DNA of 64,000 bases from a virus (Duplodnaviria > Caudoviricetes). Both the position numbers and the translations under genes were made by a program. Below are positions 4,901 to 45,532 of the stretch, piece by piece; the first letter of the stretch is position 1, and the number at the start of each line of letters is the position of its first letter. Location: positions 96,001 to 160,000 of IMG/VR virus record IMGVR_UViG_3300025150_000002; one strand, 5' to 3'. The notes beneath the pieces were generated by a model. The model was not told where the DNA came from. It did no database searches and was given only the letters and a program-made list of their open reading frames with translations.

Positions 4901-6681
4901 CCCCAGTGCTCCTCGACATCGAGGTGCTCGTCGGTGTAGCCGTTAGCTTCAAGTAGCGCTACCGCTGTCTCTGTCTTCAACTCGTAGTCGCCGTTGAAGA
5001 AGTCCCTGGCGCGGTAGTGGTGAACTCCCATCGACCTAGCGATGTCCGGATAAGTCTGCCTACGCACGACCTCGTTCGGAGACCGCAGTCTCGCCTTCGA
5101 GTGAAGGTCAGGCTTCTTGAGTTCGATCTCCTCCCAGTCGTCAGTGTTCTTCTTGGGGGTCACGAGGCGGTGGCGCGTCGGGTCGAGATCTTTCACCTCG
5201 ACGTACTTCAAGAACCTGGCCTTGGGGCGGCCCTTACCCTGCCCGATGATCTCCTCAACCAGGACTGGGTGGGTGGCGTTCGCGTACAACTCGCGATGGT
5301 CACTGAAAACCCGGTAGATCTTGTCCTGCCCGTTGTGCTTCTTGTAGCAGACCCGGGTCTTCCGGAGCTTGTCCTCCTTGGTGAAGGAGTAGACCTCATC
5401 GCCCTCTTCAAGCTCCCTGATGGCCTTCCGTCCTTCGGGGGTCCAGATCTGCGAATCGCCGCGTAGGCAGAGCTTGTAGATGAGCATGGCATCTTCGAGG
5501 AGGACGAGCCGCTTCCAGATCCACCGTGCTCCGTCAGCTACACCGTAGCCGTATGGGCAGCGGCGAACCGTGCCTCGCAACCGTGAGTGCAGGACCTGCC
5601 ACTCCTCGAAAAGCGCTACGTGGTCAGGCACCTTAGTCTGGCCCGCGAGCATGCCGCGCAGGTCCGTGGCGTCCTGAGTGAATTTACCGGTGACGTCCTG
5701 AACGTAGCCGATGAGCGCGCCGTTCGACTGCTCCACGCGCCTCATGGTCGGGACTGGCAGGGAGTTTAGGCCGACGACACCATTCTCGGTGACCAGAACC
5801 TCTTCGTAGTTATTGCCCATCTTCACGGTCGTGTAGACCATGCTCCAGATATCGTCCTCAATCCTCAAACGCCTGTTGAGGAGCGTATCAGTCATGTCCT
5901 TGATGGCTTCGTCGCCCGAGTGAACCCATACGGTCTTGCCTGTGTCGATGTCTGGCTGGGTAGCATCGTTGGTGAAGTAGTGATGTGCGCTGTTATGCAC
6001 AACAACTCCGTTGGCAACGAAGTTCTTGGTCCCGGTTGAGACGTCGTAGACGTCTTCTTCTCCTGCCGGCTGGGCCGCCTGGACGACACGCAGGGTCCCT
6101 GAGATTGTGTGCAGGAAGGAGCACATTCCGTGCGCCTCGAAGCCTGCCCACGTGGAGACGACTACCGTCCCCTCGGTCATGTCAGATGCGTTGATGTAGC
6201 CGTGTTCAACCGTGAGGAACTTGTGATCTGGTGTACACCGGATGTTCTCACCGTTACTGAACCCGAGCTGCACGACTGGCTGCTTGTTCCCGGTCACACG
6301 CGGGTTATTGGTGACCGTCTTTGTAAGTCGCTGCGTCTTGGTGTCGTAAGCGAGGATCTCTACCCCACCACCGTTAGCCGCCAGATCGTGTAGACGGAAG
6401 GGCTTGATGATCGAACCATCAACCACATAGATCAGCGTGTCGCCGGTAAGGCAGTTGATGTCCGGGTAGTCATCCATCTGCTCGTAGTCGGCATACCTGT
6501 CCATCAGGTTCTGCGAGACCGAGAGCAGCCCGCCTACATCCTCTCGCCCCCACACCGAGAACATCGAGGTCGGGATGTGCTTTTCTGCATCAGCAGAAGG
6601 CGATTCGGCCCTGTCACGTTCTGCGCGCTCTCGGCCAAAAACTTGGCGAAGGTAATTCAGCGCATCGTCTCGAAGTGCCAT
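1972..6681 (-). CDS. T4 gp20-type portal protein precursor containing three inteins
   Basis: Removing three Hint segments restores gp20-like motifs YEQMDDYPDIN|SAHHYFTNDAT, LEDAMLIYKL|TRAPARFAFYIDV and KQKLVNPR|TQRLDMRYNPM; about 607 aa after splicing. Confidence 0.88.
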   Translation of the reverse strand: MALRDDALNYLRQVFGRERAERDRAESPSADAEKHIPTSMFSVWGREDVGGLLSVSQNLMDRYADYEQMDDYPDINCLTGDTLIYVVDGSIIKPFRLHDLAANGGGVEILAYDTKTQRLTKTVTNNPRVTGNKQPVVQLGFSNGENIRCTPDHKFLTVEHGYINASDMTEGTVVVSTWAGFEAHGMCSFLHTISGTLRVVQAAQPAGEEDVYDVSTGTKNFVANGVVVHNSAHHYFTNDATQPDIDTGKTVWVHSGDEAIKDMTDTLLNRRLRIEDDIWSMVYTTVKMGNNYEEVLVTENGVVGLNSLPVPTMRRVEQSNGALIGYVQDVTGKFTQDATDLRGMLAGQTKVPDHVALFEEWQVLHSRLRGTVRRCPYGYGVADGARWIWKRLVLLEDAMLIYKLCLRGDSQIWTPEGRKAIRELEEGDEVYSFTKEDKLRKTRVCYKKHNGQDKIYRVFSDHRELYANATHPVLVEEIIGQGKGRPKARFLKYVEVKDLDPTRHRLVTPKKNTDDWEEIELKKPDLHSKARLRSPNEVVRRQTYPDIARSMGVHHYRARDFFNGDYELKTETAVALLEANGYTDEHLDVEEHWGGDRGIPVKGVTVPDVVDEDFARWWGFMLGDGFITTRTQKGGFVSQNEIGFALGEDDQINDRYKGLFERYVPGVKLVNDQDYRLGAYSFVSSKFAEFMLLNGFIPGAHDKRLPEWVFRASPEIKLAMIRGLADADAHIIPRREGRKTRFEKARFELCNKQLLEDVRELAMQLGLVVTFVRERTREGGRTIAGSTQPLKGTTSYCMDITFKQQPLTEPLRGVEVVGVDDIWDIGVEDEEHNFIADGVCVHNTRAPARFAFYIDVTDIPSDKVDSFLRKAKQDMRKQKLVNPRCLTGETPVTCLDGKDRSMRDLAEEVPRLAKEGKHHYVFSYDTKRHRVVPGKITAAGLSGKKKAVYRVVVDSGAIVRCTGDHPFLLRNGSYKQAQDLVKGESLMPLYLSRGSKETQHYWKYKDTGLGKQRYVHQMVTEELIDPDYKAKGLHVHHRDENKENNHPSNLEPITPGDHAGGRHPIHLQAARKALKERAQNDPVFKQELYGRIRDWREENPEKISEANKKAAATKTERADCLYNLVFAMVDQKLHNDPTITSQDMVAWLNGQEDFIRIYADLPTTIKPKLSRGCWTALLKRRGFKSFADYKEQVAGTGERKSGPQKKKERRLVGAGKNNHTVVSVTPDGFEDVYDITVEDYHNFALTAGVFVHNTQRLDMRYNPMDNMQDFFIAVRENRELARVEVLQGPDYQATEDVEYFARKLHGVLKVPRSYLGQDDAPPPKTILSFEDVRAARVTMGIQREMKNTIRRLIQIDLASRGINPFNQDLQVMMTVPSGIYELAHNEIKNARADFATRVQPFVSMRYIQERILKLSDDEIDVIEKQREEDMKKQAEQQKLMGDAGGGGGGAGGPGGLPMEGPALAGGAGGPPPPMDIGPPPGVAGRPNTQNEWKRYDQARRLEERLDRESRARDAEIQDSLRKAMIENKSLAHRLTQTEHFIRELKHTYMSRNGNGKLVPQGRGRGHGRH
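2923..4029 (-). mobile_element. portal intein 3 with HNH endonuclease (369 aa)
   Basis: CLTGET...CTGDHPF...VFVHN/T; HNH motif HVHHRDENKENNHPSNLE. Confidence 0.93.
4153..5469 (-). mobile_element. portal intein 2 with LAGLIDADG endonuclease (439 aa)
   Basis: CLRGDS...ATHPV...VCVHN/T; LAGLIDADG-type motifs WWGFMLGDG and MIRGLADADA. Confidence 0.93.
5992..6453 (-). mobile_element. portal intein 1, mini-intein (154 aa)
   Basis: Starts CLTGDT, block B CTPDHKF, ends VVHN followed by Ser; no endonuclease domain. Confidence 0.93.
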
Positions 6682-14031: not shown

Positions 14032-17000
14032 CTAGTGCAATTCGTCCCATGTACGCCCCGCACGCGCGTCTGCGGTGAAAGGCACCCTCATTCCGGTCGC
14101 GACGCTCTCCATCGAGGTTTTCACCAATCCGCAGAGCTCCTCTTTCATGGCACGGGGCCCTTGGAAGATGAGTTCGTCGTGGACCTGAATCATGAACCGG
14201 AACTTGGCCCACAACTTCGACTCGGCGGGCCGCGAGTTGGCGACCTTATCGTTCCGGGCGTCGTAGAGCTTGATCATCGCCAACTTGATCAGATCCTGGC
14301 AGCTGTTGTGGGTGAAGAACCCCGCCGCGATGTAGGCATGATTGTCACCGTGAATCTCGATGTCATAGGTCGGTGACGATCCTACATGCTCGACCGAAAC
14401 CACCTTGTCCCACCCATATCCCAGCACCTCCTTGGGACCGGGCTCATCAATGTAGTCGAGAACGGCCTCAATCATGTTCTCGCCTGCGTTTCCTGTCCTG
14501 GCATGTCCGATGTAGGTCTGGATTCTACGGCGCATCCTTCGATCATCAAACGCTGTAGATGATCCCTGCCGCGAAGCGAGCGCAGGCGCTCTGGAGGCCA
14601 GCTCGGCCACAGCCGACACAAACGACCTAGGCAGCTCCCGCCTTGGAGCACGGGTCGCAATAAGCTGGAGAGCGCCCGCCAGGGTGGCCGCCTTCCTTGG
14701 GTGGCGAAGAGGGACCCACCTGTTGAAGGCCTGAAATCCACGATATGAGACATCAAGTCGATACTGCTTGGTCATCCCTCTCTTCTTGCCCGTTCGCGCC
14801 ACGTCGAGCTCGCGGATCGCGCAATCAATCCCGAGAGAACTGGCGAGTTTCCACGCACCTTCAACAAGCTCGCGAACGCGAGAAGAGTAGTTGATGGTCA
14901 GGGATGTATAGGTCTTCTGCTTGTAGCTGAGAACCGACCCGTCAGTGTCGATCAGACCGGCGAGCACAGCGCCTCGCAGTTCGGGACTGGCTGTGTAAGC
15001 CCACTTCGGGATCCTCTTAGCCTGCTTAGAAACGCAGTCCAACCCGAGGATCATCAGGTTTGAACGAGCGCGACTACTGTTACAAACCAGGTCCCTGACC
15101 TTTCCTCCGCGATTCGTATTCCTAAGTCCCCAGCGGAGCTTCTTGCGCGCTGTCTCGCCCTGCGACCTCAAAACCGACTCTTCTAGAGATTCAGGCCAGC
15201 CTGGATCTCTTGCCGATGCCGCCAGGGTAAACCCTTGGGATGACCCGTAGTAACCGTCACCGATGAGTGCACCGACCAAATATGCATCGTCGACGGACGC
15301 CCCATGATCGTCATCACCGCCTGCCGCCAGCACATCGTGCGTGGCTAGCATATCGCCCGAGTCGAGCTCCGACGTCTTGGTCCACACCATTCGCAAGCCA
15401 TCCATGGTCGCGAACCTGTGATCTGCAGAACAGGTGATGGTCCTGCCGCTCGACAGCGTTACCTTAAACACGTCTTTCACGCCGGAGTCGATGACGTCGT
15501 AGTCACTGGTGAATTTCTCGCCGTCGAAAATCGGCAGCCTGTCCGTCGCGAGGTCCTCGATGCTCACGTAGCCCTGCTCTGTGAGAACAGGAGTAGATGG
15601 AGTCACACACCCGCTGACGCGGAACTGGATCGCCTTAGTACCTGCGACGTAGTCATTCTTCTGCCAGTCGGTATCAAGCCGGCGCCGACGTCGCGCAATG
15701 TTGTAGGCGATGTAGTTGTCTTTGACGAGCTGGTTGATGGTCCGCTCATGCCAAGAGGCGATTCCAGGGTAGGCCTGATGCCAGAGCTCGATCAGCCGCT
15801 GGCCGTAACCGATCTGCGGGTTACCGTCCTCATCGAACAGACCTGCATAGATGCAGAACTTGGGTGCTCCCATGCGGTAAAGCAGCCCGAAGTTGCTGTC
15901 CAATACAGCAACACTGTTGCAAATCATCGCAGTTCGTTCGGGCTCGTAAACGTCGAACACTGGGGCCTCCCCAGCATCGGTCACGCTGCGAACTTTTGCG
16001 GTCCAAATTCCAGCGTCTCGATATGCCTTGATCTCGTCCGGTAGCACGTCCTCTAGTAGCTCCAGTCGAGTATCGCCAAATCGAACTGGGCTCTTCTTGC
16101 GGCGGATCACCTCGCGCAGCTTGTCTTTCCTCTTACGCTTGGTCTTGTCGTAGATCGATTCCAGTAGGACCTCTACGCCATCCAAGAACCGGTTGGCGTA
16201 ATCAGCGCTCTGTGGGGCCATGGCCTCCAGGAGCTTGTCAGACTTCTCAGTTGACACGAATCCGACGCGTTCAGCGAACCGCTCGATATCGCGCTGTCGT
16301 CTGACCGTCCAGCACCAGTAAGGTTGCTCTCCCTTTAGGGTGGGCCGCATTTCACTATGGATAAACCCGAGGATGTCGATGTTCATCATCTCGGCGTGGA
16401 TTTGACGAATTAGCTTCTCGGACTTGCTGGTATAGACGATCGCAAAGCTATTTCTCGCCTTTCCAACCGCCTTTACAGTACCGTCGCCCTCGAACAGAGC
16501 CCGGAAGAACTCGCGCTTCAGCGACCACGGTGCACTCCTCACACACCTCGGAATGTCCTTCTCACCAGAGCAGGATTTGAACCCGAGATGGGCCATCCAC
16601 AAATTCAGCTTCTTTGAGGCTACTGTATAGTGCGTAGCCTCCTTATCCAGTGGATGATGTTCAGTGATGGTCCTATCGTTTACCACCAACCTCCAACAGC
16701 CGATGAAATCCTCGACCATCTCTACTGAGCAGTCACCAAACCCGAAGGGCATCTGATAGTAACCGCGAGACTCATCAGTTACCATCCGCCCCTCGGACAC
16801 GAAGTAGCCGAAAAACCGAGCAACCTCTGGCGTCATCTCGGTCGGAAGATCAATATCCTTGAGCGCATTCCCTCCGACCACATCAATCGATGGTAGGGCC
16901 ACGTCCTTTCCGTGAACATCACGACCGGTCATGATCAGGCATGGGTCATCGGGCCGCAGATCAGCAGCCATCACTCGTTCGACCTTTCCGCCTCGCATCA

Positions 17001-20000
17001 CAAAGAATTCGTGGTCCGGCGTGGCCGTGAGCTTGATCCCGTATTCGAGGTTCACATCGACGACGGAACGAACTCCAGGGCTCCAGGTCGAGTCGGTGTA
17101 GCGAATCTGACCATCGTCAGACATGATCCCGATACGCTTCTTGAACCTGTCCGGCTCGGTCACCACCTCGCCCATCTCAAGCAGCCCGTGCTCTGTAAGG
17201 AGCATGGCGTCAGCGGTCACGCAGTTCTTTGCCAACGGATTACGCTTAACTTGGACGTCCTCTGCAGTTCGTTGGTGAAGGTCGACGTGTCGGCAGCGCT
17301 TCTGATGCTCGATGTTTGACAGGCCGCACCCGGGACAAAGCGCCGGGTTGCTGTCGGTGTCCGGCAACCACCCCTCAGGCTGCCACGTGTGGCCGCACTC
17401 GTTGCAGGACCAGTTCAGGTAGCGATCGCATGCTGCGCCGTCCTTGTTCCTGCAATGACCGGTGTTCAAGAACACCTCGATCATGTTGAGCTCGTTTGCC
17501 AGGTGGGCTGCCATCCGCAACTCCATCTGCGATTGGCCGCTCACCAACCCATTCTCTAGGACATACGTGTGTGTCCCCTCGACGGTGATCTGCCAAACCT
17601 CCCGCGAACCCACCGGAGTAATCGACACGATTCGATGATTGTCTGATTTCGCGCGGCCTCGATTTGCGCAGGACCTACCGCAGAACCTTGCTGCGCTCTT
17701 CGTAGGCAGGAAATCCTGGTTACATGTTAAGCACGCTTTAGTCCCTGGCTTACCAGACGTAAAACACTCGCGGGAGCAGAACCGAGTCTTTTTTCCGTCA
17801 CTTCTGTAATAGACCACCCCGCACCGGGCGCAGGTCAGGTCACAGCCGTTCTCGCGTGACTTGTGATAGCACGCTCTGCTACAGAACTTACCGTCTGCAG
17901 AAGGTGGTTGGTAAAACGCACTGCCGCAGGAAGCGCAGTTAGTCACGGCTCCCTTCAGGTTCCCGTGATTTGGGTTTCCGTCTGCTTTATAGGATCGACG
18001 GTTCTTCCTCTGGCCTTCGACTAATTGCTGCTTCTTTCGCCGGCGCTGAGATAGGGTGGCCGCGTCCCACCAGCGCTGAGCCCCCTGCCCCCTGTTCTCT
18101 CGGCTGGGCAACCACCGCAGATTAGCACCTCTGTTATCAAAGGTGTCTCCGTTGATGTGGTCGGCATCGTGGCCCTCAGGACGTTCCCCGTGAAAGTGCT
18201 CAGCGAGTACGATGTGCTGAAACGCAGCAACCCCGCGAACCGCCCACATCTTATATCTACCTAGCTGTGTCTCGCGCACGTGAGCCAAGCGATCCCCTGG
18301 ATTCAAGTACTTGGTCTCAACGAGACGTCCTCCGTATGTCATCCATTTATGATCCTCGGTACAAATCACCGATGACCCGTCTTCTAGAACCAGTTCTACG
18401 CACGGAGCAATACCGACCTTGCCACCGGCAACCACTGGTCGAATCTCTAGACTTCTCCCATCGGCAGATGACAACACCGGAGTCTCTGTAGCTGCTACCT
18501 CTTCAATCGGCATGACCCCATTGACGGTGACAATCGGGGTCCCAGCGACCAAACAGTAGTCGGCGTCTATCAGGCATAGCTGAGATCGTTCCTCGTCGTA
18601 ATCGTTCTCTAGATGGGCGCAGAATGCCTTTCGGATCAGATCCTTGTCCCGTGGTTGGTTCATAAGATTCACGGGGTCCGCCGAGTTGTGATTGACGAAC
18701 CCTTGAGCCAGGTAGCTGTGGTCACCCTCTACGGTGATGTCCCAGACATCTTCGACGCTGACTGGAGTGATGCTGGTAACTCGTGCCCAAGTTCGGACGC
18801 GATTCTCTTGATCACCGTAGGGAGGGCCTTGTCGATCTGCTTCGTAGTGAACCTCACCACTCGGTAGCCAAGTTCCTTCGCCTTCTTCGCCTTCCGACGA
18901 TCCCTGGCCTTGGTCTTCTCGCACTTCCGGTGAAACTCGCCATCGACCTCGACCAGTAGTTTCTTTTCTGGCCAAGCGAAGTCCGCTTGCCAGTTCTTGA
19001 AGAAACAGAACAGACGCCGATGCGGGATTCCAGCCGCCGTCAAAGCTCGTGAGAGTCTCATCTCCCGACGATTGGCAGAAAAGGTTAGATGGGACTTCTC
19101 GATCTCCCCGCGCTCGATCAGAGCCTGCATGAACGATCCGCTCTGCTTGACCGCACTCGCTAGAGACATCAGTCTCTGATACGCCTCTACCAGGGAGGCA
19201 AACGCCTTGGCCGGGTCGGTCGACAGCTTCGATACTTGTGGACATAGCGCCGCAAGAGCTTTGTACTCGGTATCCGTGAGCCTGCTGATCCAGGACATCG
19301 TTCCGTGAGTGTGCGCTGAAATCCCGTGATGTCGCATGTCCATCAGGACAATGGATTCCCCCACCCCAAGCTGATCTGCGATCTCGACCGCCGACAGACC
19401 CCTGGACACCTCGGTCTCCAAAAGATTCTTGGGGAAGAACGCCTCCTCGTTCCTCTTGGATGCGCTCAGGAGCCTGCCGTGCTTCACTGCCAGGTCGTCG
19501 GAGAACTGCTTGTAGGTCTTGACCGCCCTGATCAGGGCCTGATGAGATACGCCGAAGGCTACCTTGGCCTGCTCTTGCGTCAGATTGCTGTCGACGAAGA
19601 TCCTCTTGAACGACGCCTTCGAGAGTATGAATCCCTTCGAGCGATCTCGGCGAACCCATGTCGGCTCGTCGGGAAGGATGTCCTCCAAGTCCGGGAGCTT
19701 GGTAGGGTTCCCCCGAAACAGTTCGGGGAACTCCCATCCGTACACTGCCTTGCAGGTCAAGCTGATCCCATCCGACAGCCCGTACAACTTGGCCTTCTTG
19801 TAGACCGGCCTCGGGTCCTCGGCGTAGACCCTGATGAACGAGGGTCGATCTAGCACCCAACGTCGTTGCCTGACGGGCCGCCTTAGTCTCACATACCTCG
19901 GCTCGAAGCAGCCGGTCCCCTCGTTCGAGGTCCTTGAGATCACGCCACCCATTGTTGGTGAGGAATCTGTGGTCCCTTGTGCATCTGATTCGATTTCCGT

Positions 20001-21417
20001 CATCGGTCACCACCTCGAACATCAGGTCTGGGCCCTTGTTGAACAGGTTCAACACTCGCCCCTCCCGACCCTCATGGGTGATGATCATAACATCAGTTCC
20101 TGCAAACCGACCAAGTTCTGAGATTCTGACTGAACGACGGAAGTTCTCTCCTCTCAATCGGATAGAGAGCTTTGATGTCCCAGAAATGCAGCTGAGGCGA
20201 CCAATGACGGTCCCCGTCTGTCTAAACCGAGCGTAGATCCGACCCTTGTTGTCTGGATCGTTGGCGAGCGAAATCAACTTCTTGCAGAAGCTGCTGTCGA
20301 TAACGCTGAGCGAACGATACTTCAGCAGCTTGCCGACCAGTGGAAACTGATCCTTGCGGTGTTTGATGGCCTTGTCGCCGGTACCGTACTGTTCGAGCTC
20401 CTCGTTGTAGTCGACACCTTTGGTGGGTAGCCCCAGCCCACCCTTCTCTGGCGGGTTGTAGAGGAAGTCGGACACCTGCTTAGGCGAGCGCAGATTGGGG
20501 ACCCAGCCAACAGTCTCCTTGAACTCGTTCAGGATCTCCTGCTGCTCTTTGTTGATCCGCTCCTGAACAGTGACCAGCCACTCCCAATCAATAAAGCAAC
20601 CAGTGATCTCCATCTCCATGAGGATCCGCTGGATCTTCATCTCGATCTTCCAGTAGATCTTCTCCAGGTCGGAGTAGACGCCGGGCGTGTCGTCTAGTGG
20701 TGAGCACCACTCGCCCTTGTGCTTGCGCGGAGGGTCCTGCTTCCGCATGGAGTTTATGGCCCATTTCCAGAGCCGATAGGTCCAGGCACAGTCGTCGGCA
20801 GCGTAAACGCCCAGAGGCTTCTTGTTCGCGAAGCCGAAGGTGGCTTGGCCCCCAAAGGCTTCACTGTAGGTGGTCATCTTGTGGCCGAAGACCTGATCGA
20901 CTCGTGGCTTCAGACCATAGCGCCTCAGCCGTTCGTCCGCGATGTAGTCCGCGAGCATGCTGTCAGCGATGACGTTGTTGACGATCAACGGCTCGTCGAG
21001 ACCGCTCTTTAGGTAGAGGAAGGCGTCGTCGAAGATACCGTTGTGGCGGACCGCAATGATGTGCTTGAGGTCCCACAACTCTCGAAGCTGAAGCATGGTG
21101 GAGCGCTGATCAACCGGTTCACGAAGCGCACGCACTTCGCCATCAACCGTGTGCTCCATCGTTCCGTCCGTAAACGGAAACCAGGCGCGAACTGGTCGCT
21201 GCGATGGATTCTTTTCGTTTGGGACGTAGAAGGCTACACCCTCTATACGATCCTTACGGGGCGACAGCCCTGTTGTTTCCAGGTCGTATGAAAAGACGCC
21301 TTCTTCTTCGGCGCGCTCAATCAGATACGGGACGGAGACATCGCAAGTATCGGTAGGGTCCCAGGAGTTACCTTCTTGGTTGGGCTTAACTTTAGCTTTG
21401 GACCTAGCCACCAACAC
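14032..21417 (-). CDS. polA: family A DNA polymerase precursor with four inteins
   Basis: 3'-5' exo YDLETTGL; spliced motifs IGRLS|SADPVNLMN, DADY|SQMELR (A), AKN|SNFGLLY (B), VSG|SCQDLIK, QVHDEL (C); about 741 aa after splicing. Confidence 0.95.
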   Translation of the reverse strand: MLVARSKAKVKPNQEGNSWDPTDTCDVSVPYLIERAEEEGVFSYDLETTGLSPRKDRIEGVAFYVPNEKNPSQRPVRAWFPFTDGTMEHTVDGEVRALREPVDQRSTMLQLRELWDLKHIIAVRHNGIFDDAFLYLKSGLDEPLIVNNVIADSMLADYIADERLRRYGLKPRVDQVFGHKMTTYSEAFGGQATFGFANKKPLGVYAADDCAWTYRLWKWAINSMRKQDPPRKHKGEWCSPLDDTPGVYSDLEKIYWKIEMKIQRILMEMEITGCFIDWEWLVTVQERINKEQQEILNEFKETVGWVPNLRSPKQVSDFLYNPPEKGGLGLPTKGVDYNEELEQYGTGDKAIKHRKDQFPLVGKLLKYRSLSVIDSSFCKKLISLANDPDNKGRIYARFRQTGTVIGRLSCISGTSKLSIRLRGENFRRSVRISELGRFAGTDVMIITHEGREGRVLNLFNKGPDLMFEVVTDDGNRIRCTRDHRFLTNNGWRDLKDLERGDRLLRAEVCETKAARQATTLGARSTLVHQGLRRGPEAGLQEGQVVRAVGWDQLDLQGSVRMGVPRTVSGEPYQAPGLGGHPSRRADMGSPRSLEGIHTLEGVVQEDLRRQQSDARAGQGSLRRISSGPDQGGQDLQAVLRRPGSEARQAPERIQEERGGVLPQESFGDRGVQGSVGGRDRRSAWGGGIHCPDGHATSRDFSAHSRNDVLDQQAHGYRVQSSCGAMSTSIEAVDRPGQGVCLPGRGVSETDVSSECGQAERIVHAGSDRARGDREVPSNLFCQSSGDETLTSFDGGWNPASASVLFLQELASGLRLARKETTGRGRWRVSPEVREDQGQGSSEGEEGEGTWLPSGEVHYEADRQGPPYGDQENRVRTWARVTSITPVSVEDVWDITVEGDHSYLAQGFVNHNSADPVNLMNQPRDKDLIRKAFCAHLENDYDEERSQLCLIDADYCLVAGTPIVTVNGVMPIEEVAATETPVLSSADGRSLEIRPVVAGGKVGIAPCVELVLEDGSSVICTEDHKWMTYGGRLVETKYLNPGDRLAHVRETQLGRYKMWAVRGVAAFQHIVLAEHFHGERPEGHDADHINGDTFDNRGANLRWLPSRENRGQGAQRWWDAATLSQRRRKKQQLVEGQRKNRRSYKADGNPNHGNLKGAVTNCASCGSAFYQPPSADGKFCSRACYHKSRENGCDLTCARCGVVYYRSDGKKTRFCSRECFTSGKPGTKACLTCNQDFLPTKSAARFCGRSCANRGRAKSDNHRIVSITPVGSREVWQITVEGTHTYVLENGLVSGQSQMELRMAAHLANELNMIEVFLNTGHCRNKDGAACDRYLNWSCNECGHTWQPEGWLPDTDSNPALCPGCGLSNIEHQKRCRHVDLHQRTAEDVQVKRNPLAKNCVTADAMLLTEHGLLEMGEVVTEPDRFKKRIGIMSDDGQIRYTDSTWSPGVRSVVDVNLEYGIKLTATPDHEFFVMRGGKVERVMAADLRPDDPCLIMTGRDVHGKDVALPSIDVVGGNALKDIDLPTEMTPEVARFFGYFVSEGRMVTDESRGYYQMPFGFGDCSVEMVEDFIGCWRLVVNDRTITEHHPLDKEATHYTVASKKLNLWMAHLGFKSCSGEKDIPRCVRSAPWSLKREFFRALFEGDGTVKAVGKARNSFAIVYTSKSEKLIRQIHAEMMNIDILGFIHSEMRPTLKGEQPYWCWTVRRQRDIERFAERVGFVSTEKSDKLLEAMAPQSADYANRFLDGVEVLLESIYDKTKRKRKDKLREVIRRKKSPVRFGDTRLELLEDVLPDEIKAYRDAGIWTAKVRSVTDAGEAPVFDVYEPERTAMICNSVAVLDSNFGLLYRMGAPKFCIYAGLFDEDGNPQIGYGQRLIELWHQAYPGIASWHERTINQLVKDNYIAYNIARRRRRLDTDWQKNDYVAGTKAIQFRVSGCVTPSTPVLTEQGYVSIEDLATDRLPIFDGEKFTSDYDVIDSGVKDVFKVTLSSGRTITCSADHRFATMDGLRMVWTKTSELDSGDMLATHDVLAAGGDDDHGASVDDAYLVGALIGDGYYGSSQGFTLAASARDPGWPESLEESVLRSQGETARKKLRWGLRNTNRGGKVRDLVCNSSRARSNLMILGLDCVSKQAKRIPKWAYTASPELRGAVLAGLIDTDGSVLSYKQKTYTSLTINYSSRVRELVEGAWKLASSLGIDCAIRELDVARTGKKRGMTKQYRLDVSYRGFQAFNRWVPLRHPRKAATLAGALQLIATRAPRRELPRSFVSAVAELASRAPALASRQGSSTAFDDRRMRRRIQTYIGHARTGNAGENMIEAVLDYIDEPGPKEVLGYGWDKVVSVEHVGSSPTYDIEIHGDNHAYIAAGFFTHNSCQDLIKLAMIKLYDARNDKVANSRPAESKLWAKFRFMIQVHDELIFQGPRAMKEELCGLVKTSMESVATGMRVPFTADARAGRTWDELH
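14305..15609 (-). mobile_element. PolA intein 4 with LAGLIDADG (435 aa)
   Basis: CVTPST...CSADHRF...LVGALIGDG / LAGLIDTDG...FFTHN/S. Confidence 0.93.
15898..17223 (-). mobile_element. PolA intein 3 with LAGLIDADG, C-terminal Asp (442 aa)
   Basis: CVTADA...ATPDHEF...FFGYFVSEG / FFRALFEGDG...NSVAVLD/S in motif B. Confidence 0.88.
17533..18555 (-). mobile_element. PolA intein 2 with HNH, C-terminal Gln (341 aa)
   Basis: CLVAGT...CTEDHKW...DHINGDTFDNRGANL...three CxxC..FCSRxC repeats...ENGLVSGQ/S in motif A. Confidence 0.9.
18685..20190 (-). mobile_element. PolA intein 1 (502 aa); endonuclease region is non-protein-like filler in this frame
   Basis: CISGTS...CTRDHRF...VWDITVEGDHSYLAQGFVNHN/S. 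Confidence 0.92.
18729..20003 (-). CDS. Vsr/DUF559-like PD-(D/E)xK endonuclease with HTH, nested in the +1 frame of PolA intein 1
   Basis: WQADFAWPEKKLLVEVDGEFH...RDRRK...LGYRVVRFT; HTH LSAVEIADQLGVGESIV. Real start uncertain (19952 or 19892). Confidence 0.85.
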   Translation of the reverse strand: MTEIESDAQGTTDSSPTMGGVISRTSNEGTGCFEPRYVRLRRPVRQRRWVLDRPSFIRVYAEDPRPVYKKAKLYGLSDGISLTCKAVYGWEFPELFRGNPTKLPDLEDILPDEPTWVRRDRSKGFILSKASFKRIFVDSNLTQEQAKVAFGVSHQALIRAVKTYKQFSDDLAVKHGRLLSASKRNEEAFFPKNLLETEVSRGLSAVEIADQLGVGESIVLMDMRHHGISAHTHGTMSWISRLTDTEYKALAALCPQVSKLSTDPAKAFASLVEAYQRLMSLASAVKQSGSFMQALIERGEIEKSHLTFSANRREMRLSRALTAAGIPHRRLFCFFKNWQADFAWPEKKLLVEVDGEFHRKCEKTKARDRRKAKKAKELGYRVVRFTTKQIDKALPTVIKRIASELGHELPASLQSASKMSGTSP

Positions 21418-21454
21418 CTCCCGGCTCTAGCTCTTTTACCCGACTCGGCTACAA

Positions 21455-38974: not shown

Positions 38975-41734
38975 CTAGCTGGGGTTCCTGGTGATTCTGG
39001 TCACCTTGATTCCGAGCTGAGCATAGGTGTCGTAACGTCGATCAGCCTTTCGGATGGCGTAGTCTACGTTTTCGTAAGGATCGATGGCCAACAACGGGCG
39101 CCGGTCGGCCGGACCCTTATCGCGGAGACGTCCAATAGGCTGGAGTGGCTTTCCTGGAGGAGTCGCAAAGAGAAGCGTATCGATGTGAGGGATGTTCATG
39201 GCGTCGCGGCCGAACGCGTACGTGCAGAAGATCACATCACCGCTCATCGCGTCGTCGAGCTTGGAGCCCTTCAGGCCGCCAACAAGCAAGGTGACATTTG
39301 TGTCCTCATCGAGGAGCAGGAGCTCGTCAGACGCGTCGGGGGAGGATGCATCGGGGGAGGATGCGTATACCAGTGCGTCTAGGACGTTTAGCCTGGCCGA
39401 GAAATTCTCCTTCAGAGCCTTAAGGTGATCCTTCAACCGGGCGAAAACCAAAACCCGTCGCCCTTTACCCCGCATCTTGACCAGCTCATTTACGAGGAAT
39501 TCGTTGCGCCGTGTGTCCTCGGCCAACATCTTGTCGTACTTGAGAGGGTCCGGCATTGGTTCGCCGCTAGGGGTCCTCTTCCACGAGTTGGTGTATTCCC
39601 GCACCTCGTAGCGCTTTTTGTAGAGGACCTGGACGACATCCGGCTTCGGCGTCGCCATGACGACCTTATGGATGATTGGACCGAAGTGCCACGTTACGAG
39701 TTTGTCCAGGCCGTCATCCCTAGTAGGGTCGGCCGACATTCCTACCCTGTAACGTGTAGGAAAGAGCTTCATGACCTCGTTCCACTGCGGTGCACCGAAT
39801 CGGTTGCAGTTGTGGACCAACAGCCCATTGGCAACAAACGAGTGGTGCTCATCAACTTCCAGGTCAAACACGGGGTCATATACTGAAGCGTCTTCTACGA
39901 TCCTCGTAATCGTCGGGAAATTTGTAACGCATGGAAGGCGCAGCGTAATCTCTGACAATCCGTAGCCACTTGATGGCTTCTCTGACTTTGAGTTTGATGA
40001 TCCAGTACTTCCCTTTTGATGGGTACACTGAGCCATCGACCTTGAATCGGTCGTAGATGTAGTCCCGGAGCAGGCACACTTCGTCTTTGGAGAAGCCCTC
40101 AGTGTGAAATCTGATACCACCTCTTTGGCAGTTCCCATCGTCCATGTACCACCACGCCCATCCCTCATCAGAGATCGCAGATAACCACGCCGGGTTGACC
40201 TGTCTGCCGGGCCCGACACGGTCTCGCACTGAGAGCAGTGATGGGTGGGTGCAACTTGTTCCTCTGTAGAGGACATCTCCGTAACCGTGGTTCTCTTTTT
40301 CTCTGACCTGGACGTGCAGTCCGACAAGTCGTTGGGCTTTGTAATACGCCCAGTCTTTTTGTCGTGGACCATGGTTGAACACGATCCCTGGATAGACGAT
40401 TCCCCGCCCTCGGCCCCCTCCTGATCTTCCTCCGGTCCTGGAGGTGTTTGAGTAAAGAGCGCTGTCTCCGAGCAGTGTTCCGTAGACAAGTCCAAGGCAG
40501 TCGTCTGAGAGTGGGCGCCTGACGCCTTTGCAGCCGTTGTGCCCCAACACAACGCGCGGCCATTTGTAGTTCTTGATTCGAGCTCTTTCGAGGTCTGCTC
40601 GGACGCGCAGCTGTTCCCCACAGCCACAGGCACAGAATGGCGCTGATTCGTTGAGAATCCGGATTCGCTCTTCCCAGTCAATTGATCTGCGACGATTGTG
40701 GTGCCCCCGTACGAACCGTCGTCTTCGACCCCGTTTGTCACGTCTTGGGACAGACTCTCCGCAACCGCACTCACAGGCGATAGTAGCCGCATCCCCTCCT
40801 TTAGATTTTGAGCCTGAATCCAGCCTCGATCTGTCCGAATCAGGTGTTCTGGAGTGCATCGAAGAGTGACCCCTTCCGATGTTTCGATCGCCAGAGTCCT
40901 CTTCACACCCTTTGGAACCCATCTAATGATCCTCCGATAAGTCCATCGCTCATGATACTCATCGTAACATAGCACTGAACTGGCACCGGAACCAGGAATA
41001 TCTTTGATGGGCACTTTACCCACATCCGTGTCGATGAGGGAGTCACCAGCGATGCACTCGTCAGCCACGATCACGCCAAACTGGGCGTAGAGCTCGGGCG
41101 GGTATTCCTTCTCGCTGAGCAGGCTCTGCACCATCATGATAGTGACGGGGCGTCCTAGATCGCAGCGATCACGCTGAACAATCCCTATCTCCTCATCATT
41201 GAGTCCGAACAGCCATTTGGCTGTTTCGACCCAGTTCTTGACCATGTGCTCGTTATAGACCAACACACCAATGGTGGTGTTCAGCCGGTGGCCGATCGCA
41301 TATCCGAGGATTGTCTTACCGCACCCGGTGGGGGCGCACAAAATACCGCCGGAATGTTCCTTCAGATGCTTGACAACCATCTCTACGGCGAGCGGCTGGC
41401 CTCGTTTCGAATCGAGGACTGCGTTGAACGGTAGGTTCGTTGGTCGACCGTCGACCCACTCGAATTTGATGTCGTGGTTTCCGAGCTTTCGCTTACTGAT
41501 GGATTCAGCGAAGAAGAACCTGGGGATCCAGAAGTAGCCATCCTTCTTGTAAAAGGCTTCCACATCGATAGCAGGCGCGTCGTTCCACGACTTCATCTGT
41601 AGCGTTAGCCGCTCTTGCATGTCTAACTGTACGTCTACCTTGAGCTTCTTGGCCAGGATGCCAAGATAGCCTTGTAGCCGATACACATCAGGCTCAGAGG
41701 TCGTAGACATAACAGTCGGGCCTCGCACTCCCAT
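38975..41734 (-). CDS. UvsW-like SF2 helicase precursor with one intein
   Basis: CAPTGCGKT, VADE|CNRFG, GMSADPTRDDG, QPIGRLR. Confidence 0.9.
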   Translation of the reverse strand: MGVRGPTVMSTTSEPDVYRLQGYLGILAKKLKVDVQLDMQERLTLQMKSWNDAPAIDVEAFYKKDGYFWIPRFFFAESISKRKLGNHDIKFEWVDGRPTNLPFNAVLDSKRGQPLAVEMVVKHLKEHSGGILCAPTGCGKTILGYAIGHRLNTTIGVLVYNEHMVKNWVETAKWLFGLNDEEIGIVQRDRCDLGRPVTIMMVQSLLSEKEYPPELYAQFGVIVADECIAGDSLIDTDVGKVPIKDIPGSGASSVLCYDEYHERWTYRRIIRWVPKGVKRTLAIETSEGVTLRCTPEHLIRTDRGWIQAQNLKEGMRLLSPVSAVAESLSQDVTNGVEDDGSYGGTTIVADQLTGKSESGFSTNQRHSVPVAVGNSCASEQTSKELESRTTNGRALCWGTTAAKASGAHSQTTALDLSTEHCSETALFTQTPPGPEEDQEGAEGGESSIQGSCSTMVHDKKTGRITKPNDLSDCTSRSEKKRTTVTEMSSTEEQVAPTHHCSQCETVSGPADRSTRRGYLRSLMRDGRGGTWTMGTAKEVVSDFTLRASPKTKCACSGTTSTTDSRSMAQCTHQKGSTGSSNSKSEKPSSGYGLSEITLRLPCVTNFPTITRIVEDASVYDPVFDLEVDEHHSFVANGLLVHNCNRFGAPQWNEVMKLFPTRYRVGMSADPTRDDGLDKLVTWHFGPIIHKVVMATPKPDVVQVLYKKRYEVREYTNSWKRTPSGEPMPDPLKYDKMLAEDTRRNEFLVNELVKMRGKGRRVLVFARLKDHLKALKENFSARLNVLDALVYASSPDASSPDASDELLLLDEDTNVTLLVGGLKGSKLDDAMSGDVIFCTYAFGRDAMNIPHIDTLLFATPPGKPLQPIGRLRDKGPADRRPLLAIDPYENVDYAIRKADRRYDTYAQLGIKVTRITRNPS
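39809..41056 (-). mobile_element. helicase intein (416 aa); central region is non-protein-like filler in this frame
   Basis: CIAGDS...CTPEHLI...VFDLEVDEHHSFVANGLLVHN/C in Walker B. Confidence 0.92.
39876..40922 (-). CDS. LAGLIDADG homing endonuclease nested in the -1 (+2) frame of the helicase intein
   Basis: GLVYGTLLGDSAL and GWAWWYMDDGN, FHTEGFSKDEV, two CxCGCGE repeats; probable start ATG 40859. Confidence 0.9.
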   Translation of the reverse strand: MGSKGCEEDSGDRNIGRGHSSMHSRTPDSDRSRLDSGSKSKGGDAATIACECGCGESVPRRDKRGRRRRFVRGHHNRRRSIDWEERIRILNESAPFCACGCGEQLRVRADLERARIKNYKWPRVVLGHNGCKGVRRPLSDDCLGLVYGTLLGDSALYSNTSRTGGRSGGGRGRGIVYPGIVFNHGPRQKDWAYYKAQRLVGLHVQVREKENHGYGDVLYRGTSCTHPSLLSVRDRVGPGRQVNPAWLSAISDEGWAWWYMDDGNCQRGGIRFHTEGFSKDEVCLLRDYIYDRFKVDGSVYPSKGKYWIIKLKVREAIKWLRIVRDYAAPSMRYKFPDDYEDRRRRFSI

Positions 41735-42904: not shown

Positions 42905-45532
42905 TTAGTCGATCAGGATCGACTCCTCGTCGAATGGAGGGTCGTCGTCGTCATCAGCTCCGCCTCCGGCGTTCGTGCTGTCGAGGCTATCACCCGACCC
43001 CTCCTCGACCTTTTCGAGGATCTGGATTTCGTCGTAGTTGTGAGTGCCGGGATCGAAGTGAATCTCCAGATCAACGGTCTCGAACTCGCGTGCCTCCATC
43101 CCTCGGATGATCCTCCGCTTGTTTCCTCGGAACTCGGTGTTTCCGAAGATACCGTCGATGGCATCCGCGTAGTCGCCTACAGCCTTGGCGTAGGCCACAG
43201 CATCAGCCTCGGCATTCATATCACCCTTCTTGACCTGACCACTAAGCTGAGTGGTCGTGACGACGGGAATGCCAAACTTCGCAGCGATGTCAAGCTTGAT
43301 CGACTTGATGTTGTGGACCATGCGCTCCCACATCTGCATACGGGCGTTCTTAACGTCCAAGATGTAAAAGGAGTCGATGAAGACAGCCTTAGGCCGATAC
43401 TGCGCGACAAGCCCGACGATATCGTCGGTGGTTCGGGCGCGATCTGAGGCGACGATCACGATGTGAGGGCGGCTGTGATCCGCCTGCTTCATCTCGGCGG
43501 CCCACTCGAAGAAGCGCTTCTCCTCCTCTTCAGAGAGCTTTCCAGACCGGAACTTCTCATAGTCGAGTTTGTTGTGAATAGCGAAGAGCCGACGACGAAC
43601 CTGCTTGGTCGGCATCTCCATTGAGACAACCAGCAGGCACTCACCAGGCCCGAGCTCCGGATCTCCCTTATTTGTGACTGCGGTCCAGATGTGGTCAACC
43701 CACTTCAGCAAAAGCCACGTGTTATGGACGATCACATCGTTAGCGATGAAGCAGTGAGTTGGGATCACGGTCAGATCAAAGACTCGTCTCTCACCAACGC
43801 TCTCGACCATCACGATCTCATCCCACGTGATGTTGTCGTCGAGAACCCATCTGAGGTCTGAGTTGTAAACGTCGCAGAAGGCTTCAAACACCTTCCTCCG
43901 AATGCGGCCCGACTTGTAATCCAGGACGTGGCTCTTCTGGAACGCGAAGTCGTAGCCGAGCTCCTCTCCAACCTCCTTGACCAACTCAGGCCGGTCCGAC
44001 ATCTCGGCCTTGATCTGGTCCCAGAGCTCCTCGTTACGGATCCAGCCGACTCGGCTCCGGCCCTGAAACTTGATCTCCTGGAGCTTTGCTGCCTTCGGCC
44101 CGATGAGGTGCTGTCCAACCGTCTGCTTGAATTTCTCGATGTGCTCCATGCGGATCACCACCTCGGAGTAGTCGCGCTCACCGTCCCTGGTGTTCCGGTG
44201 AATGGTTCGCACTCTCGAAGTGACGCCGAACCTGAGGAGCAGGTGCTGAACCTGATCAGCCATCTTGCGAGAGCCGGTGGAGTAGCTGACAACCCCCTTC
44301 TTCTCAACCGATCCATCACACGACCACAAGCGCCCTAGAAAAAGGGCCAGCTGATGATTCGGAAGAGAGAACACAGCGTCAGGAATCGTCTTGTCGATTG
44401 ATAGCTTTCCGTGAAGGTTGTAAGACTTCAGCAGTTCAACGACACCGTTTCTTCCTCCGTGGAGTGTTACAACACGATGATTTCCAGGCTCATACTCATT
44501 GAGAGTGTGATCGGTTGTAGAGAGCGCCCCGTCCATATCCTCGACAATCTCTGGCACCGCACTTGTAAATGTAGGGGTCGATGGCTTGGTGCAACCACCC
44601 TCGGCGATCATGTAGGCCAGCACCTTGATGGTTGCTGGTTCCATACACACAGGCGTTATCGGCTCAGGAAACACCGCCACAGCTGCAGTGTGATGTCCCT
44701 CCTGGAGCTCGTCGATCCTCTTCCAACCCGTAGGAGTCATCAACGGGTGTTCTGGCGTAGCGATAAGCGATCGACCGGACCTCCATGTGATCTTGAGACA
44801 TTCCTTGATTCCCATATCGAGGTAGGCATCCGGTGACACACTGCGGAGAGGGGACGCCTTATCCCACGTGTGGAGCTGCCGAGTCCCCTCTCTGACAAAC
44901 TCCTCAATGGGAAGTTGCACGCCTGTTCTAGCACAAATCACTGGAGTATCAGGACTTAGGCACTTGCCGGACTTTCGCTTAGCTAGGAGAACGGTGACCT
45001 CACCAGCCTGAAGGCCCAGGCTCGCTTTGTCACGAGACGGCCAGGGTGACGAGAACCCGAGCAGTCCACCATCGCGGCTCTTTGCGTCGAGGTAGTCGTC
45101 TTCGATTTCTGAGATAGCAGCCGCCGAGTTGGTGCTTATCACCGAACCAAGGCTCCAAGTGGTCTCCTTGACCAGGTCTCCTAGCGCGTCCCGGGCGGCG
45201 AACGGATCCTTGTAGACTTGCTCCGTGATCAGGTCCAGTCCGTCGGCCAGCTTATTCTGCAGCGTACGACGCATGATGTCTTGCGCGCATAGATCGACAT
45301 CAAATTCAACGGCTGTCTCTTCGATGTCGATCGAGTAGTGCTGCCGAATCGTTGCCACGTTTGGCATCTTGCCCTTCGGCAAGAACACCTCCTCGAACGC
45401 GACGAAAATAGTGCGGTCATCGGCAGCAAGGATAAATTCTGCCTCGACCCCCATCGTTTTCGCCTTCTGAAAAGCGGGCACGCCGCCTTGCATAATGCTG
45501 TAGATGAGTGCCCGGTCTGGGTGGGTGTCCAC
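42905..45532 (-). CDS. DnaB-like replicative helicase precursor with one intein
   Basis: AKRKSGK|TWLL, VSMEM, VFIDSFY, TTQLSG. Confidence 0.9.
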   Translation of the reverse strand: MDTHPDRALIYSIMQGGVPAFQKAKTMGVEAEFILAADDRTIFVAFEEVFLPKGKMPNVATIRQHYSIDIEETAVEFDVDLCAQDIMRRTLQNKLADGLDLITEQVYKDPFAARDALGDLVKETTWSLGSVISTNSAAAISEIEDDYLDAKSRDGGLLGFSSPWPSRDKASLGLQAGEVTVLLAKRKSGKCLSPDTPVICARTGVQLPIEEFVREGTRQLHTWDKASPLRSVSPDAYLDMGIKECLKITWRSGRSLIATPEHPLMTPTGWKRIDELQEGHHTAAVAVFPEPITPVCMEPATIKVLAYMIAEGGCTKPSTPTFTSAVPEIVEDMDGALSTTDHTLNEYEPGNHRVVTLHGGRNGVVELLKSYNLHGKLSIDKTIPDAVFSLPNHQLALFLGRLWSCDGSVEKKGVVSYSTGSRKMADQVQHLLLRFGVTSRVRTIHRNTRDGERDYSEVVIRMEHIEKFKQTVGQHLIGPKAAKLQEIKFQGRSRVGWIRNEELWDQIKAEMSDRPELVKEVGEELGYDFAFQKSHVLDYKSGRIRRKVFEAFCDVYNSDLRWVLDDNITWDEIVMVESVGERRVFDLTVIPTHCFIANDVIVHNTWLLLKWVDHIWTAVTNKGDPELGPGECLLVVSMEMPTKQVRRRLFAIHNKLDYEKFRSGKLSEEEEKRFFEWAAEMKQADHSRPHIVIVASDRARTTDDIVGLVAQYRPKAVFIDSFYILDVKNARMQMWERMVHNIKSIKLDIAAKFGIPVVTTTQLSGQVKKGDMNAEADAVAYAKAVGDYADAIDGIFGNTEFRGNKRRIIRGMEAREFETVDLEIHFDPGTHNYDEIQILEKVEEGSGDSLDSTNAGGGADDDDDPPFDEESILID
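43721..44962 (-). mobile_element. DnaB intein with LAGLIDADG (414 aa)
   Basis: CLSPDT...ATPEHPL...LAYMIAEG / FLGRLWSCDG...VIVHN/T in the P-loop. Confidence 0.93.

Follow-up and report, generated by a model that had tools for sequence, protein, structure and literature searches.

We analyzed a window of 64,000 nucleotides (positions 96,001 to 160,000 of the 203,521-bp IMG/VR virus record IMGVR_UViG_3300025150_000002, whose metagenome source is groundwater and aquifer) and found that its gene for a phage DNA helicase of superfamily 2 (SF2, ResIII type) contains an intein whose DNA is used twice. One reading frame, here called the host frame, runs without a stop through the helicase and a class-1 intein, and the -1 frame of the same strand encodes a complete LAGLIDADG homing endonuclease. 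A nuclease nested in the intein had been proposed in a first-pass annotation made from the window alone, and this interpretation is supported by stop codon statistics, by conservation in the nuclease frame and by the same layout at other loci. Very probably, the locus holds a composite mobile element in which a contiguous class-1 intein is combined with a separate, overlapping LAGLIDADG gene that is made by internal initiation and serves homing. Coordinates without further specification are those of the window, and all of its genes and signals described below lie on the minus strand.

The helicase open reading frame (ORF; 38975..41734) encodes a precursor of 919 amino acids (aa), and the predicted spliced product is 503 aa long. 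The two ends of the ORF match Pfam ResIII (E=2.2e-12) and the DNA helicases of PHROG 16 (E=1.3e-24), and its middle matches Pfam Intein_splicing (E=1.8e-10, 41.3 bits with a cut-off of 35.8). The intein of 416 aa (39809..41056) extends from Cys227 (CIAGDS) to Asn642 (LVHN) of the precursor and is followed by a cysteine, which confirms the boundaries given in the first-pass annotation. It shows the characteristics of class-1 inteins, that is, a nucleophile at position 1 (Cys1), a TxxH sequence in block B (TPEH), a C-terminal His-Asn (VHN) and a nucleophile at extein position +1 (Cys). The insertion site is helicase motif II (VADE|CNRF), and the DNA of the fused, intein-free junction would read ...GCTGACGAG|TGCAACCGA.... 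Since the host frame has no stop within the intein, the intein is contiguous and not split, and should splice in cis rather than in trans. Based on the intact motifs and on the homologous 150-aa Ssp DnaX mini-intein, which is splicing-competent without its central region (PMC3443213), the window intein is expected to undergo protein splicing.

In an AlphaFold2 (AF2) model of the intein, residues 1-96 (40769..41056; predicted local distance difference test, pLDDT, 74-94) and residues 378-416 (39809..39925; pLDDT 85-88), the latter ending in HN before the +1 Cys, consist of beta structure throughout, and only these first 96 and last 39 residues are predicted to fold as a Hint domain. The 281 host-frame residues in between (97-377; 39926..40768) contain no stop and were modelled with pLDDT values of 25-49 and without secondary structure. 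Their composition (14.9% Ser, 13.9% Thr and 9.6% Gly, compared with 4.2, 5.2 and 6.9% in the exteins) bears out the Ser/Thr/Gly-rich central filler described earlier. No significant similarity was found when the filler was compared pairwise among homologues. Its only conserved island, GGTW(T/M)M at intein residues 302-307, is the host-frame shadow of the invariant nuclease sequence WWYMDDG.

The nuclease ORF (39876..40922; 348 aa plus stop) is offset by -1 (+2) relative to the intein frame and nested between splicing blocks B and F, where it overlaps about 51 codons of the N-terminal and about 16 codons of the C-terminal Hint region. Its product matches Pfam LAGLIDADG_2 (PF03161; E=1.9e-16, 60.9 bits with a cut-off of 25), and a profile of the protein and 11 homologues matches I-WcaI (PDB 6x1j; E=1e-15) and I-SceI. 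The AF2 model has a mean pLDDT of 78, with residues 1-44 disordered, and in Foldseek it was matched to I-WcaI and I-SceI with TM-scores of 0.70-0.71 and a probability of 1.00. All sequence motifs originally noted in the shifted frame (ACECGCGE and CACGCGE, YGTLLGDS, WWYMDDG, and FHTEGF) are present.

Alignment of 12 homologues showed which parts of the nuclease are conserved. In the first CxCGCG...RGH motif (ACECGCGE; residues 50-75, 40698..40775), C50, C52, C54, G73, and H74 are nearly invariant, as are C97, C99, G100, C101, and H128 in the second motif, CxCGCG...GH (CACGCGE; residues 97-128, 40539..40634), which also has a weak match to DUF6527. Residues 41-80 were modelled as a beta hairpin (block-mean pLDDT 68-86), and the first motif is a putative zinc- or DNA-binding module. 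LAGLIDADG motif 1 (LGLVYGTLLGDSA; 40455..40493) contains the catalytic Asp153, with G148, L151, G152, and D153 invariant and a modelled helix at residues 140-151. LAGLIDADG motif 2 (GWAWWYMDDGN; 40131..40163) contains the catalytic Asp261/262, with A256, W257, W258, D261, D262, and G263 invariant and a modelled helix at residues 252-262. The 348-aa protein thus has the two helices of a single-chain LAGLIDADG enzyme, that is, an I-SceI-like monomer.

Selection that keeps the splicing frame free of stops is supported by resampling. With the nuclease protein held fixed and synonymous codons drawn according to local codon usage, 4.8-6.1 host-frame stops were expected across the intein, where none is observed (P of zero stops=0.005-0.00075), and the openness of the host frame had P<=0.00075 in each of eight loci. 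In the reverse test, in which the host-frame protein was fixed, a -1 ORF of at least 340 codons arose in 0 of 3000 resamples. In nine pairwise comparisons, nucleotide identity by nuclease-codon position followed the order 2 > 1 > 3, position 3 of the nuclease codon being position 2 of the host frame, a pattern consistent with selection for the nuclease protein rather than for the filler. From the same bases, the nuclease proteins are 33-61% identical compared with 12-38% for the fillers (36-43% and 15-25%, respectively, in the pairs that include the window). These comparisons indicate that, in the overlap, the nuclease frame and not the host-frame sequence is under purifying selection.

A blastn search with the gene against 50,697 phage records gave no match, and relatives were found by tblastn and protein searches only, followed by inspection of the genomic context. 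A -1 nuclease in a stop-free host frame was identified in the helicase genes of Xanthomonas phage FoX3 and of four other phage-type loci (L006, L026, L027, and L028), as well as in two dnaX genes of cyanobacterial type (L003 and L005). The nested LAGLIDADG ORF of FoX3 (L001; MT161383.1, 26902-29268) encodes 252 aa and occupies positions 2815-3573 of the locus. In the deposited annotation of this phage the gene is a single coding sequence for a 'putative DNA helicase', the feature in the RefSeq copy is labelled 'head morphogenesis', and intein and nuclease are unannotated. Compared with L006 or L003, the window shows 48% identity in the N-terminal and 62-65% in the C-terminal Hint region, and 41-43% in the nuclease; the exteins are 27-33% identical to those of L006 and unrelated to those of dnaX (L003). 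The hmmsearch scores for L003 and L005 are not independent, as the profiles were built from these very sequences. The closest nuclease homologue, P0003, is 52% identical. In a maximum-likelihood tree, the window nuclease groups with P0003, L028, L006, and L026 (support 94/91), and the dnaX clade (97/94) is sister to the helicase-borne L027 (87/75). The tree is unrooted or midpoint-rooted and has weak deep nodes, so that the direction of transfer cannot be read from it, and the position it suggests for the dnaX nucleases, among the helicase-borne forms, is weakly supported and unrooted.

Homologues with the nuclease simply in frame had been named in the first-pass annotation as evidence that would speak against nesting. 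Such PF03161 nucleases were found only in inteins of SNF2 helicases (L018, L020, and L021), which are on long branches, whereas the close homologues have the nuclease out of frame and an open host frame. Related helicases also occur in fractured form. In Pectobacterium phage Ymer, 13 host-frame stops lie between the Hint halves, and the nuclease overlaps both halves at the -1 offset. In L007 of IMG/VR (2498-5186), a member of the helicase family is encoded in two halves, with a free-standing nuclease gene between them. The L007 N-half ends in the N-terminal Hint region and is followed by a TTGACT...TATATT-like sequence and GGAGG before the nuclease gene, and the ATG of the C-half comes directly after the nuclease stop (TAAATG).

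Two candidate starts were identified for the nuclease. The likeliest start codon, ATG at 40920..40922, overlaps the codons of the invariant Hint residues 'RW' (AGA TGG) and has an in-frame TAG directly upstream. A Shine-Dalgarno (SD)-like GGAGGA (40930..40935), formed by the host codons CGG AGG ATC (RRI), is located 7 nt upstream of it. At the same position, L028 has GTG with the same GGAGGA and spacing, L026 has ATG after AGGAGGA, and L006 has ATG. The start favored earlier, ATG at 40857..40859, lies in the block B 'RC' codons (CGA TGC) and does have GGAAGGGG 10 nt upstream; it is conserved in position in Ymer (where it is the annotated start, with GGAGAGG upstream), L003, L005, and L028. Judged by these comparisons, however, ATG 40922 has the stronger support in this clade, and ATG 40859 is plausible as an alternative or an additional start. 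The most economical way to make the nuclease would be internal initiation on the helicase mRNA. The minus-strand RNA of 40840-40990, analyzed in the window sequence alone, has a minimum free energy of -54.6 kcal/mol and is predicted to fold more stably than shuffled sequences, although the signal is weak (z=-2.4). Both SD and start regions are partly paired in the predicted fold, with the 5' part of GGAGGA and ATG 40859 in stems, and such stems might limit nuclease translation.

An AAGGAGG at 40795..40801 had likewise been proposed as a signal for nuclease expression. The sequence is present, but its part in starting the nuclease did not hold. It precedes a host-frame ATG (Met in NLKEGM) by 2 nt, no ATG, GTG, or TTG of the nuclease frame follows it until 40550, it is not conserved among the homologues, and no conserved slippery site was found. 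It was rejected as a ribosome-binding site of the nuclease, and no function is assigned to it.

A locus scan gave one intein-free orthologue, in L029, a 134.7-kb IMG/VR contig with syntenic genes for DnaB, primase, helicase, and the downstream protein. The L029 helicase (2344-3837; 497 aa) is intein-free and lacks exactly the intein segment of the window. It is colinear with the spliced sequence of the window and 71% identical to it over 489 columns (ADE|VNRF and ADE|CNRF, respectively), so that the intein is an insertion which one of the two related phages has and the other lacks. The L029 DnaB (26-1153; 375 aa) is also intein-free, unlike that of the window, where the DnaB-type helicase gene next door (42905..45532; 875 aa) has an ordinary intein with an in-frame LAGLIDADG nuclease. 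At the empty helicase site the DNA reads ...GATGAG|GTGAAC..., with Val (GTG) in place of the +1 Cys (TGC) of the window; either co-conversion introduced the +1 Cys along with the intein, or the allele with Val is immune to insertion or does not permit it. The unit of Hint regions and nuclease also occurs at DE|C sites of unrelated host genes. A second or free-standing copy of the nuclease, which would have pointed to a recent local invasion, was sought in the same phage genome and not found.

The composite element might work as follows. The helicase mRNA would be translated straight through the contiguous intein, whose two Hint segments (96 and 39 residues) would associate and splice the helicase across motif II (ADE-CNRF), and the 281-residue linker would be a junk peptide with the sole requirement of being stop-free. 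The -1 frame of the same DNA would constitute a gene of its own, whose product would be a monomeric, I-SceI-like LAGLIDADG enzyme preceded by two Cys3-His motifs. Its translation would most likely begin internally at ATG 40922 behind the SD sequence GGAGGA, or alternatively at ATG 40859. The enzyme would most likely cut intein-free helicase alleles at DE|C, and repair would copy in the intein together with the nuclease. In this way, the Hint regions and the -1-frame nuclease may have moved as a unit between the Walker-B/motif-II 'DE|C(H)' sites of different P-loop NTPases.

Several observations weigh against such a composite, active element. Splicing with a disordered linker of 281 residues is assumed by homology to Ssp DnaX, and the only empty orthologue found has Val at +1 and may not be permissive or cleavable. 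The runs examined contained one sequence variant only, and selection on this particular copy is deduced from relatives at 30-57% identity. Neither candidate start is conserved in position in all relatives, the minus strand yielded no sigma-70-like internal promoter, and of the listed sequencing runs that contain the stretch, none is on record as RNA.

Some of these points would also fit a relic, that is, a -1 ORF left by a past invasion, now unexpressed or inactive, and inherited vertically as a tolerated linker. The uniform sequence of the element in all runs that contain it, its single copy in the genome, the possibly non-permissive Val at +1 of the sole empty orthologue, and the report of nuclease-less dnaX mini-inteins (bioRxiv 10.64898/2026.09.14.751524) are all compatible with this explanation. 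In a relic, however, stops would be expected to build up in the -1 frame, which host translation does not protect, and here the ORF of 348 codons is intact and has kept all invariant residues, including both catalytic Asp and the eight Cys/His positions. Moreover, the positions of SD sequence and start codon are shared with relatives, and codon-position conservation across the relatives tracks the nuclease frame. We therefore regard a relic as unlikely.

Less probable still, and by a clear distance from the composite element with internal initiation, is that programmed -1 ribosomal frameshifting produces a fusion of N-extein, N-terminal Hint region, and nuclease, with the SD-like elements acting as stimulators. 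All helicase and dnaX relatives share the -1 offset of the nuclease, and the host frame of the window contains a heptamer A_AAG_GGT at 40913-40907 with GGAGGA 16 nt upstream. Candidate heptamers were, however, present in only two of five loci and at different places; L006, L003, and L005 have none, and that of FoX3 is elsewhere. The head of the ORF, right after the in-frame TAG, has an SD sequence and a start codon of its own, and Ymer and L007 encode the nuclease as an independent gene, which has an SD sequence of its own and, in L007, also a promoter-like sequence. A fusion product would in addition waste helicase precursor.

An assembly artefact, in which a pair of compensating indels would have shifted a normal in-frame LAGLIDADG domain out of register, had been named beforehand as a possible refutation and has nothing in its favor beyond its prior plausibility for metagenome assemblies; it can practically be discounted, as contigs from four other runs match with 0 gaps, the same offset occurs in at least eight homologous loci of unrelated sources, and a stop-free host frame by coincidence has P<0.001 per locus. 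These four runs come from different samples and studies, one of them a 2025 hot-spring metagenome, and their contigs differ from the stretch by at most one base, in one contig of run X7. As the contigs were assembled independently and are gap-free, compensating indels are excluded as far as contigs can show. At the end of the intein (39806-39845; NGLLVHN|C), otherwise differing contigs of runs X7 and X8 match these 40 bases alone, with five differences; they presumably derive from related inteins in other organisms of the same aquifer samples.

Nested nucleases out of the splicing frame recur, as the first-pass annotation had suggested, at the -1 offset in helicase and dnaX inteins, at another offset in terminase inteins, and in the PolA gene of the window with a DUF559 nuclease. 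The terminase inteins (L009/L010, L016, and L017) contain a PF03161 nuclease out of frame. Their host genes (2549-5830 in L009/L010, 2330-5989 in L016, and 2681-6433 in L017) encode phage large terminases of the GpA_ATPase family, and the inteins begin with Ser after 'DE'. In these genes the host frame is the nuclease frame +2 and is stop-free, compared with 8-32 stops expected. The PolA ORF (14038..21426; 2463 aa) has four Intein_splicing stretches together with in-frame LAGLIDADG_3, HNH_3, and Hom_end domains. Its nested +1-frame ORF (18729..20003; 424 aa) encodes a DUF559/Vsr-like protein (DUF559, E=1.1e-9), and the PolA case differs from that of the helicase in host gene, nuclease family, and offset, as had been stated.

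Inteins with an out-of-frame nuclease have been published, and the helicase intein introduces no new principle. What is added here is a contiguous intein with a same-strand, out-of-frame LAGLIDADG nuclease in phage SF2 helicases, homologous to the dnaX element, together with an empty orthologous site, conserved start signals, and a series of homologous forms, contiguous as well as fractured. The known range, mainly cyanobacterial dnaX and a few actinophage genes, is thereby extended to phage SF2 helicases, and the same unit is found in unrelated P-loop NTPases at look-alike catalytic sites, which has some bearing on the origin of the dnaX element. About 1 kb of same-strand dual coding is routinely missed, since gene callers report the long helicase ORF only and leave the nuclease unannotated. 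With the fractured relatives and the intein-free orthologue, the locus offers a tractable set for studying how nucleases and mini-inteins merge and how split inteins originate. The compact Hint pair (96 and 39 residues), which by analogy may tolerate an unstructured insert of 281 residues, is also a possible tool.

A wider scenario can be put forward tentatively, although we consider it rather less probable than its opposite. The Hint regions and the -1 nuclease may be one old mobile unit with its main reservoir in phage SF2 helicases, which may have seeded cyanobacterial dnaX by a jump between similar Walker-B 'DE|C(H)' sites; the contiguous form would have given rise to the split helicase inteins of T1-like and Pectobacterium phages once stops in the linker were tolerated. 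If true, this would give a natural homologous series for the origin of split inteins. It would also answer a question left by the description of the dnaX intein, in which the nuclease could not be traced to its source ('a phage or other endogenous HE') (bioRxiv 10.64898/2026.09.14.751524).

Of the systems described previously, the cyanobacterial dnaX intein is the closest. According to two preprints (bioRxiv 10.64898/2026.09.14.751524; bioRxiv 10.1101/2025.01.02.630785), Gorbalenya (1998, NAR 26:1741) proposed a nuclease in an alternative ORF inside the Synechocystis dnaX intein; as cited there, the strand of this ORF differs between the two accounts, antisense in one and same-strand in the other. 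In the dnaX loci examined here (L003 and L005), the nuclease is on the same strand at -1. For the cyanobacterial dnaX intein, Phillips, DeSimone & Gogarten (bioRxiv 10.64898/2026.09.14.751524) described a LAGLIDADG nuclease in an out-of-frame +2 ORF, found that its AlphaFold3 model resembles 6X1J, and reported that this ORF is under purifying selection. The window intein shares with this element (L003/L005) 40-48% identity in the N-terminal and 54-65% in the C-terminal Hint region and 41% in the nuclease, the twin CxCGCG motifs and the I-WcaI/I-SceI-like core, the -1/+2 offset, a stop-free disordered linker, and an insertion site after the Asp-Glu of Walker-B/motif II with Cys at +1. It differs in its host gene, an SF2 helicase of a 203-kb groundwater phage and not a bacterial clamp-loader subunit, and in a likely nuclease start that is further upstream (the 'RW' position) and has a strong SD sequence. 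Since the host is a phage ResIII/SF2 helicase, the window intein is a relative in a new host gene and not an allele of the dnaX intein.

Gosselin, Arsenault & Gogarten (bioRxiv 10.1101/2025.01.02.630785) reported actinophage inteins with antisense LAGLIDADG, antisense VSR-like, and out-of-frame EndoVII-like nucleases. Like the window intein, these have the nuclease off the splicing frame and an unstructured in-frame region. In that survey, however, only the EndoVII-like nucleases are out of frame on the same strand, whereas the window has a same-strand LAGLIDADG_2 nuclease, and the host genes encode DNA polymerase, minor capsid protein, terminase, and thymidylate synthase rather than an SF2 helicase. 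Invasion of a (mini-)intein by a free-standing nuclease gene, which the first-pass annotation had also suggested, is the model of origin in both preprints. Fractured genes, in which a free-standing homing endonuclease gene is located between the halves of a split intein, were described by Dassa et al. 2009 (PMC2677866). The fractured helicases of Ymer and L007 have the DE|C site, homologous Hint halves, and nuclease in common with the window, but Ymer has its 13 host-frame stops and L007 separate genes, whereas the window has neither. The nuclease itself resembles I-SceI and I-WcaI (PDB 1r7m and 6x1j) in fold and in both catalytic motifs, and belongs to Pfam LAGLIDADG_2 and not to LAGLIDADG_3, which is typical of inteins. 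In contrast to these group I intron-borne enzymes, to which it is 18-20% identical, the window nuclease is nested in an intein and carries about 135 additional N-terminal residues, which include two Cys3-His motifs.

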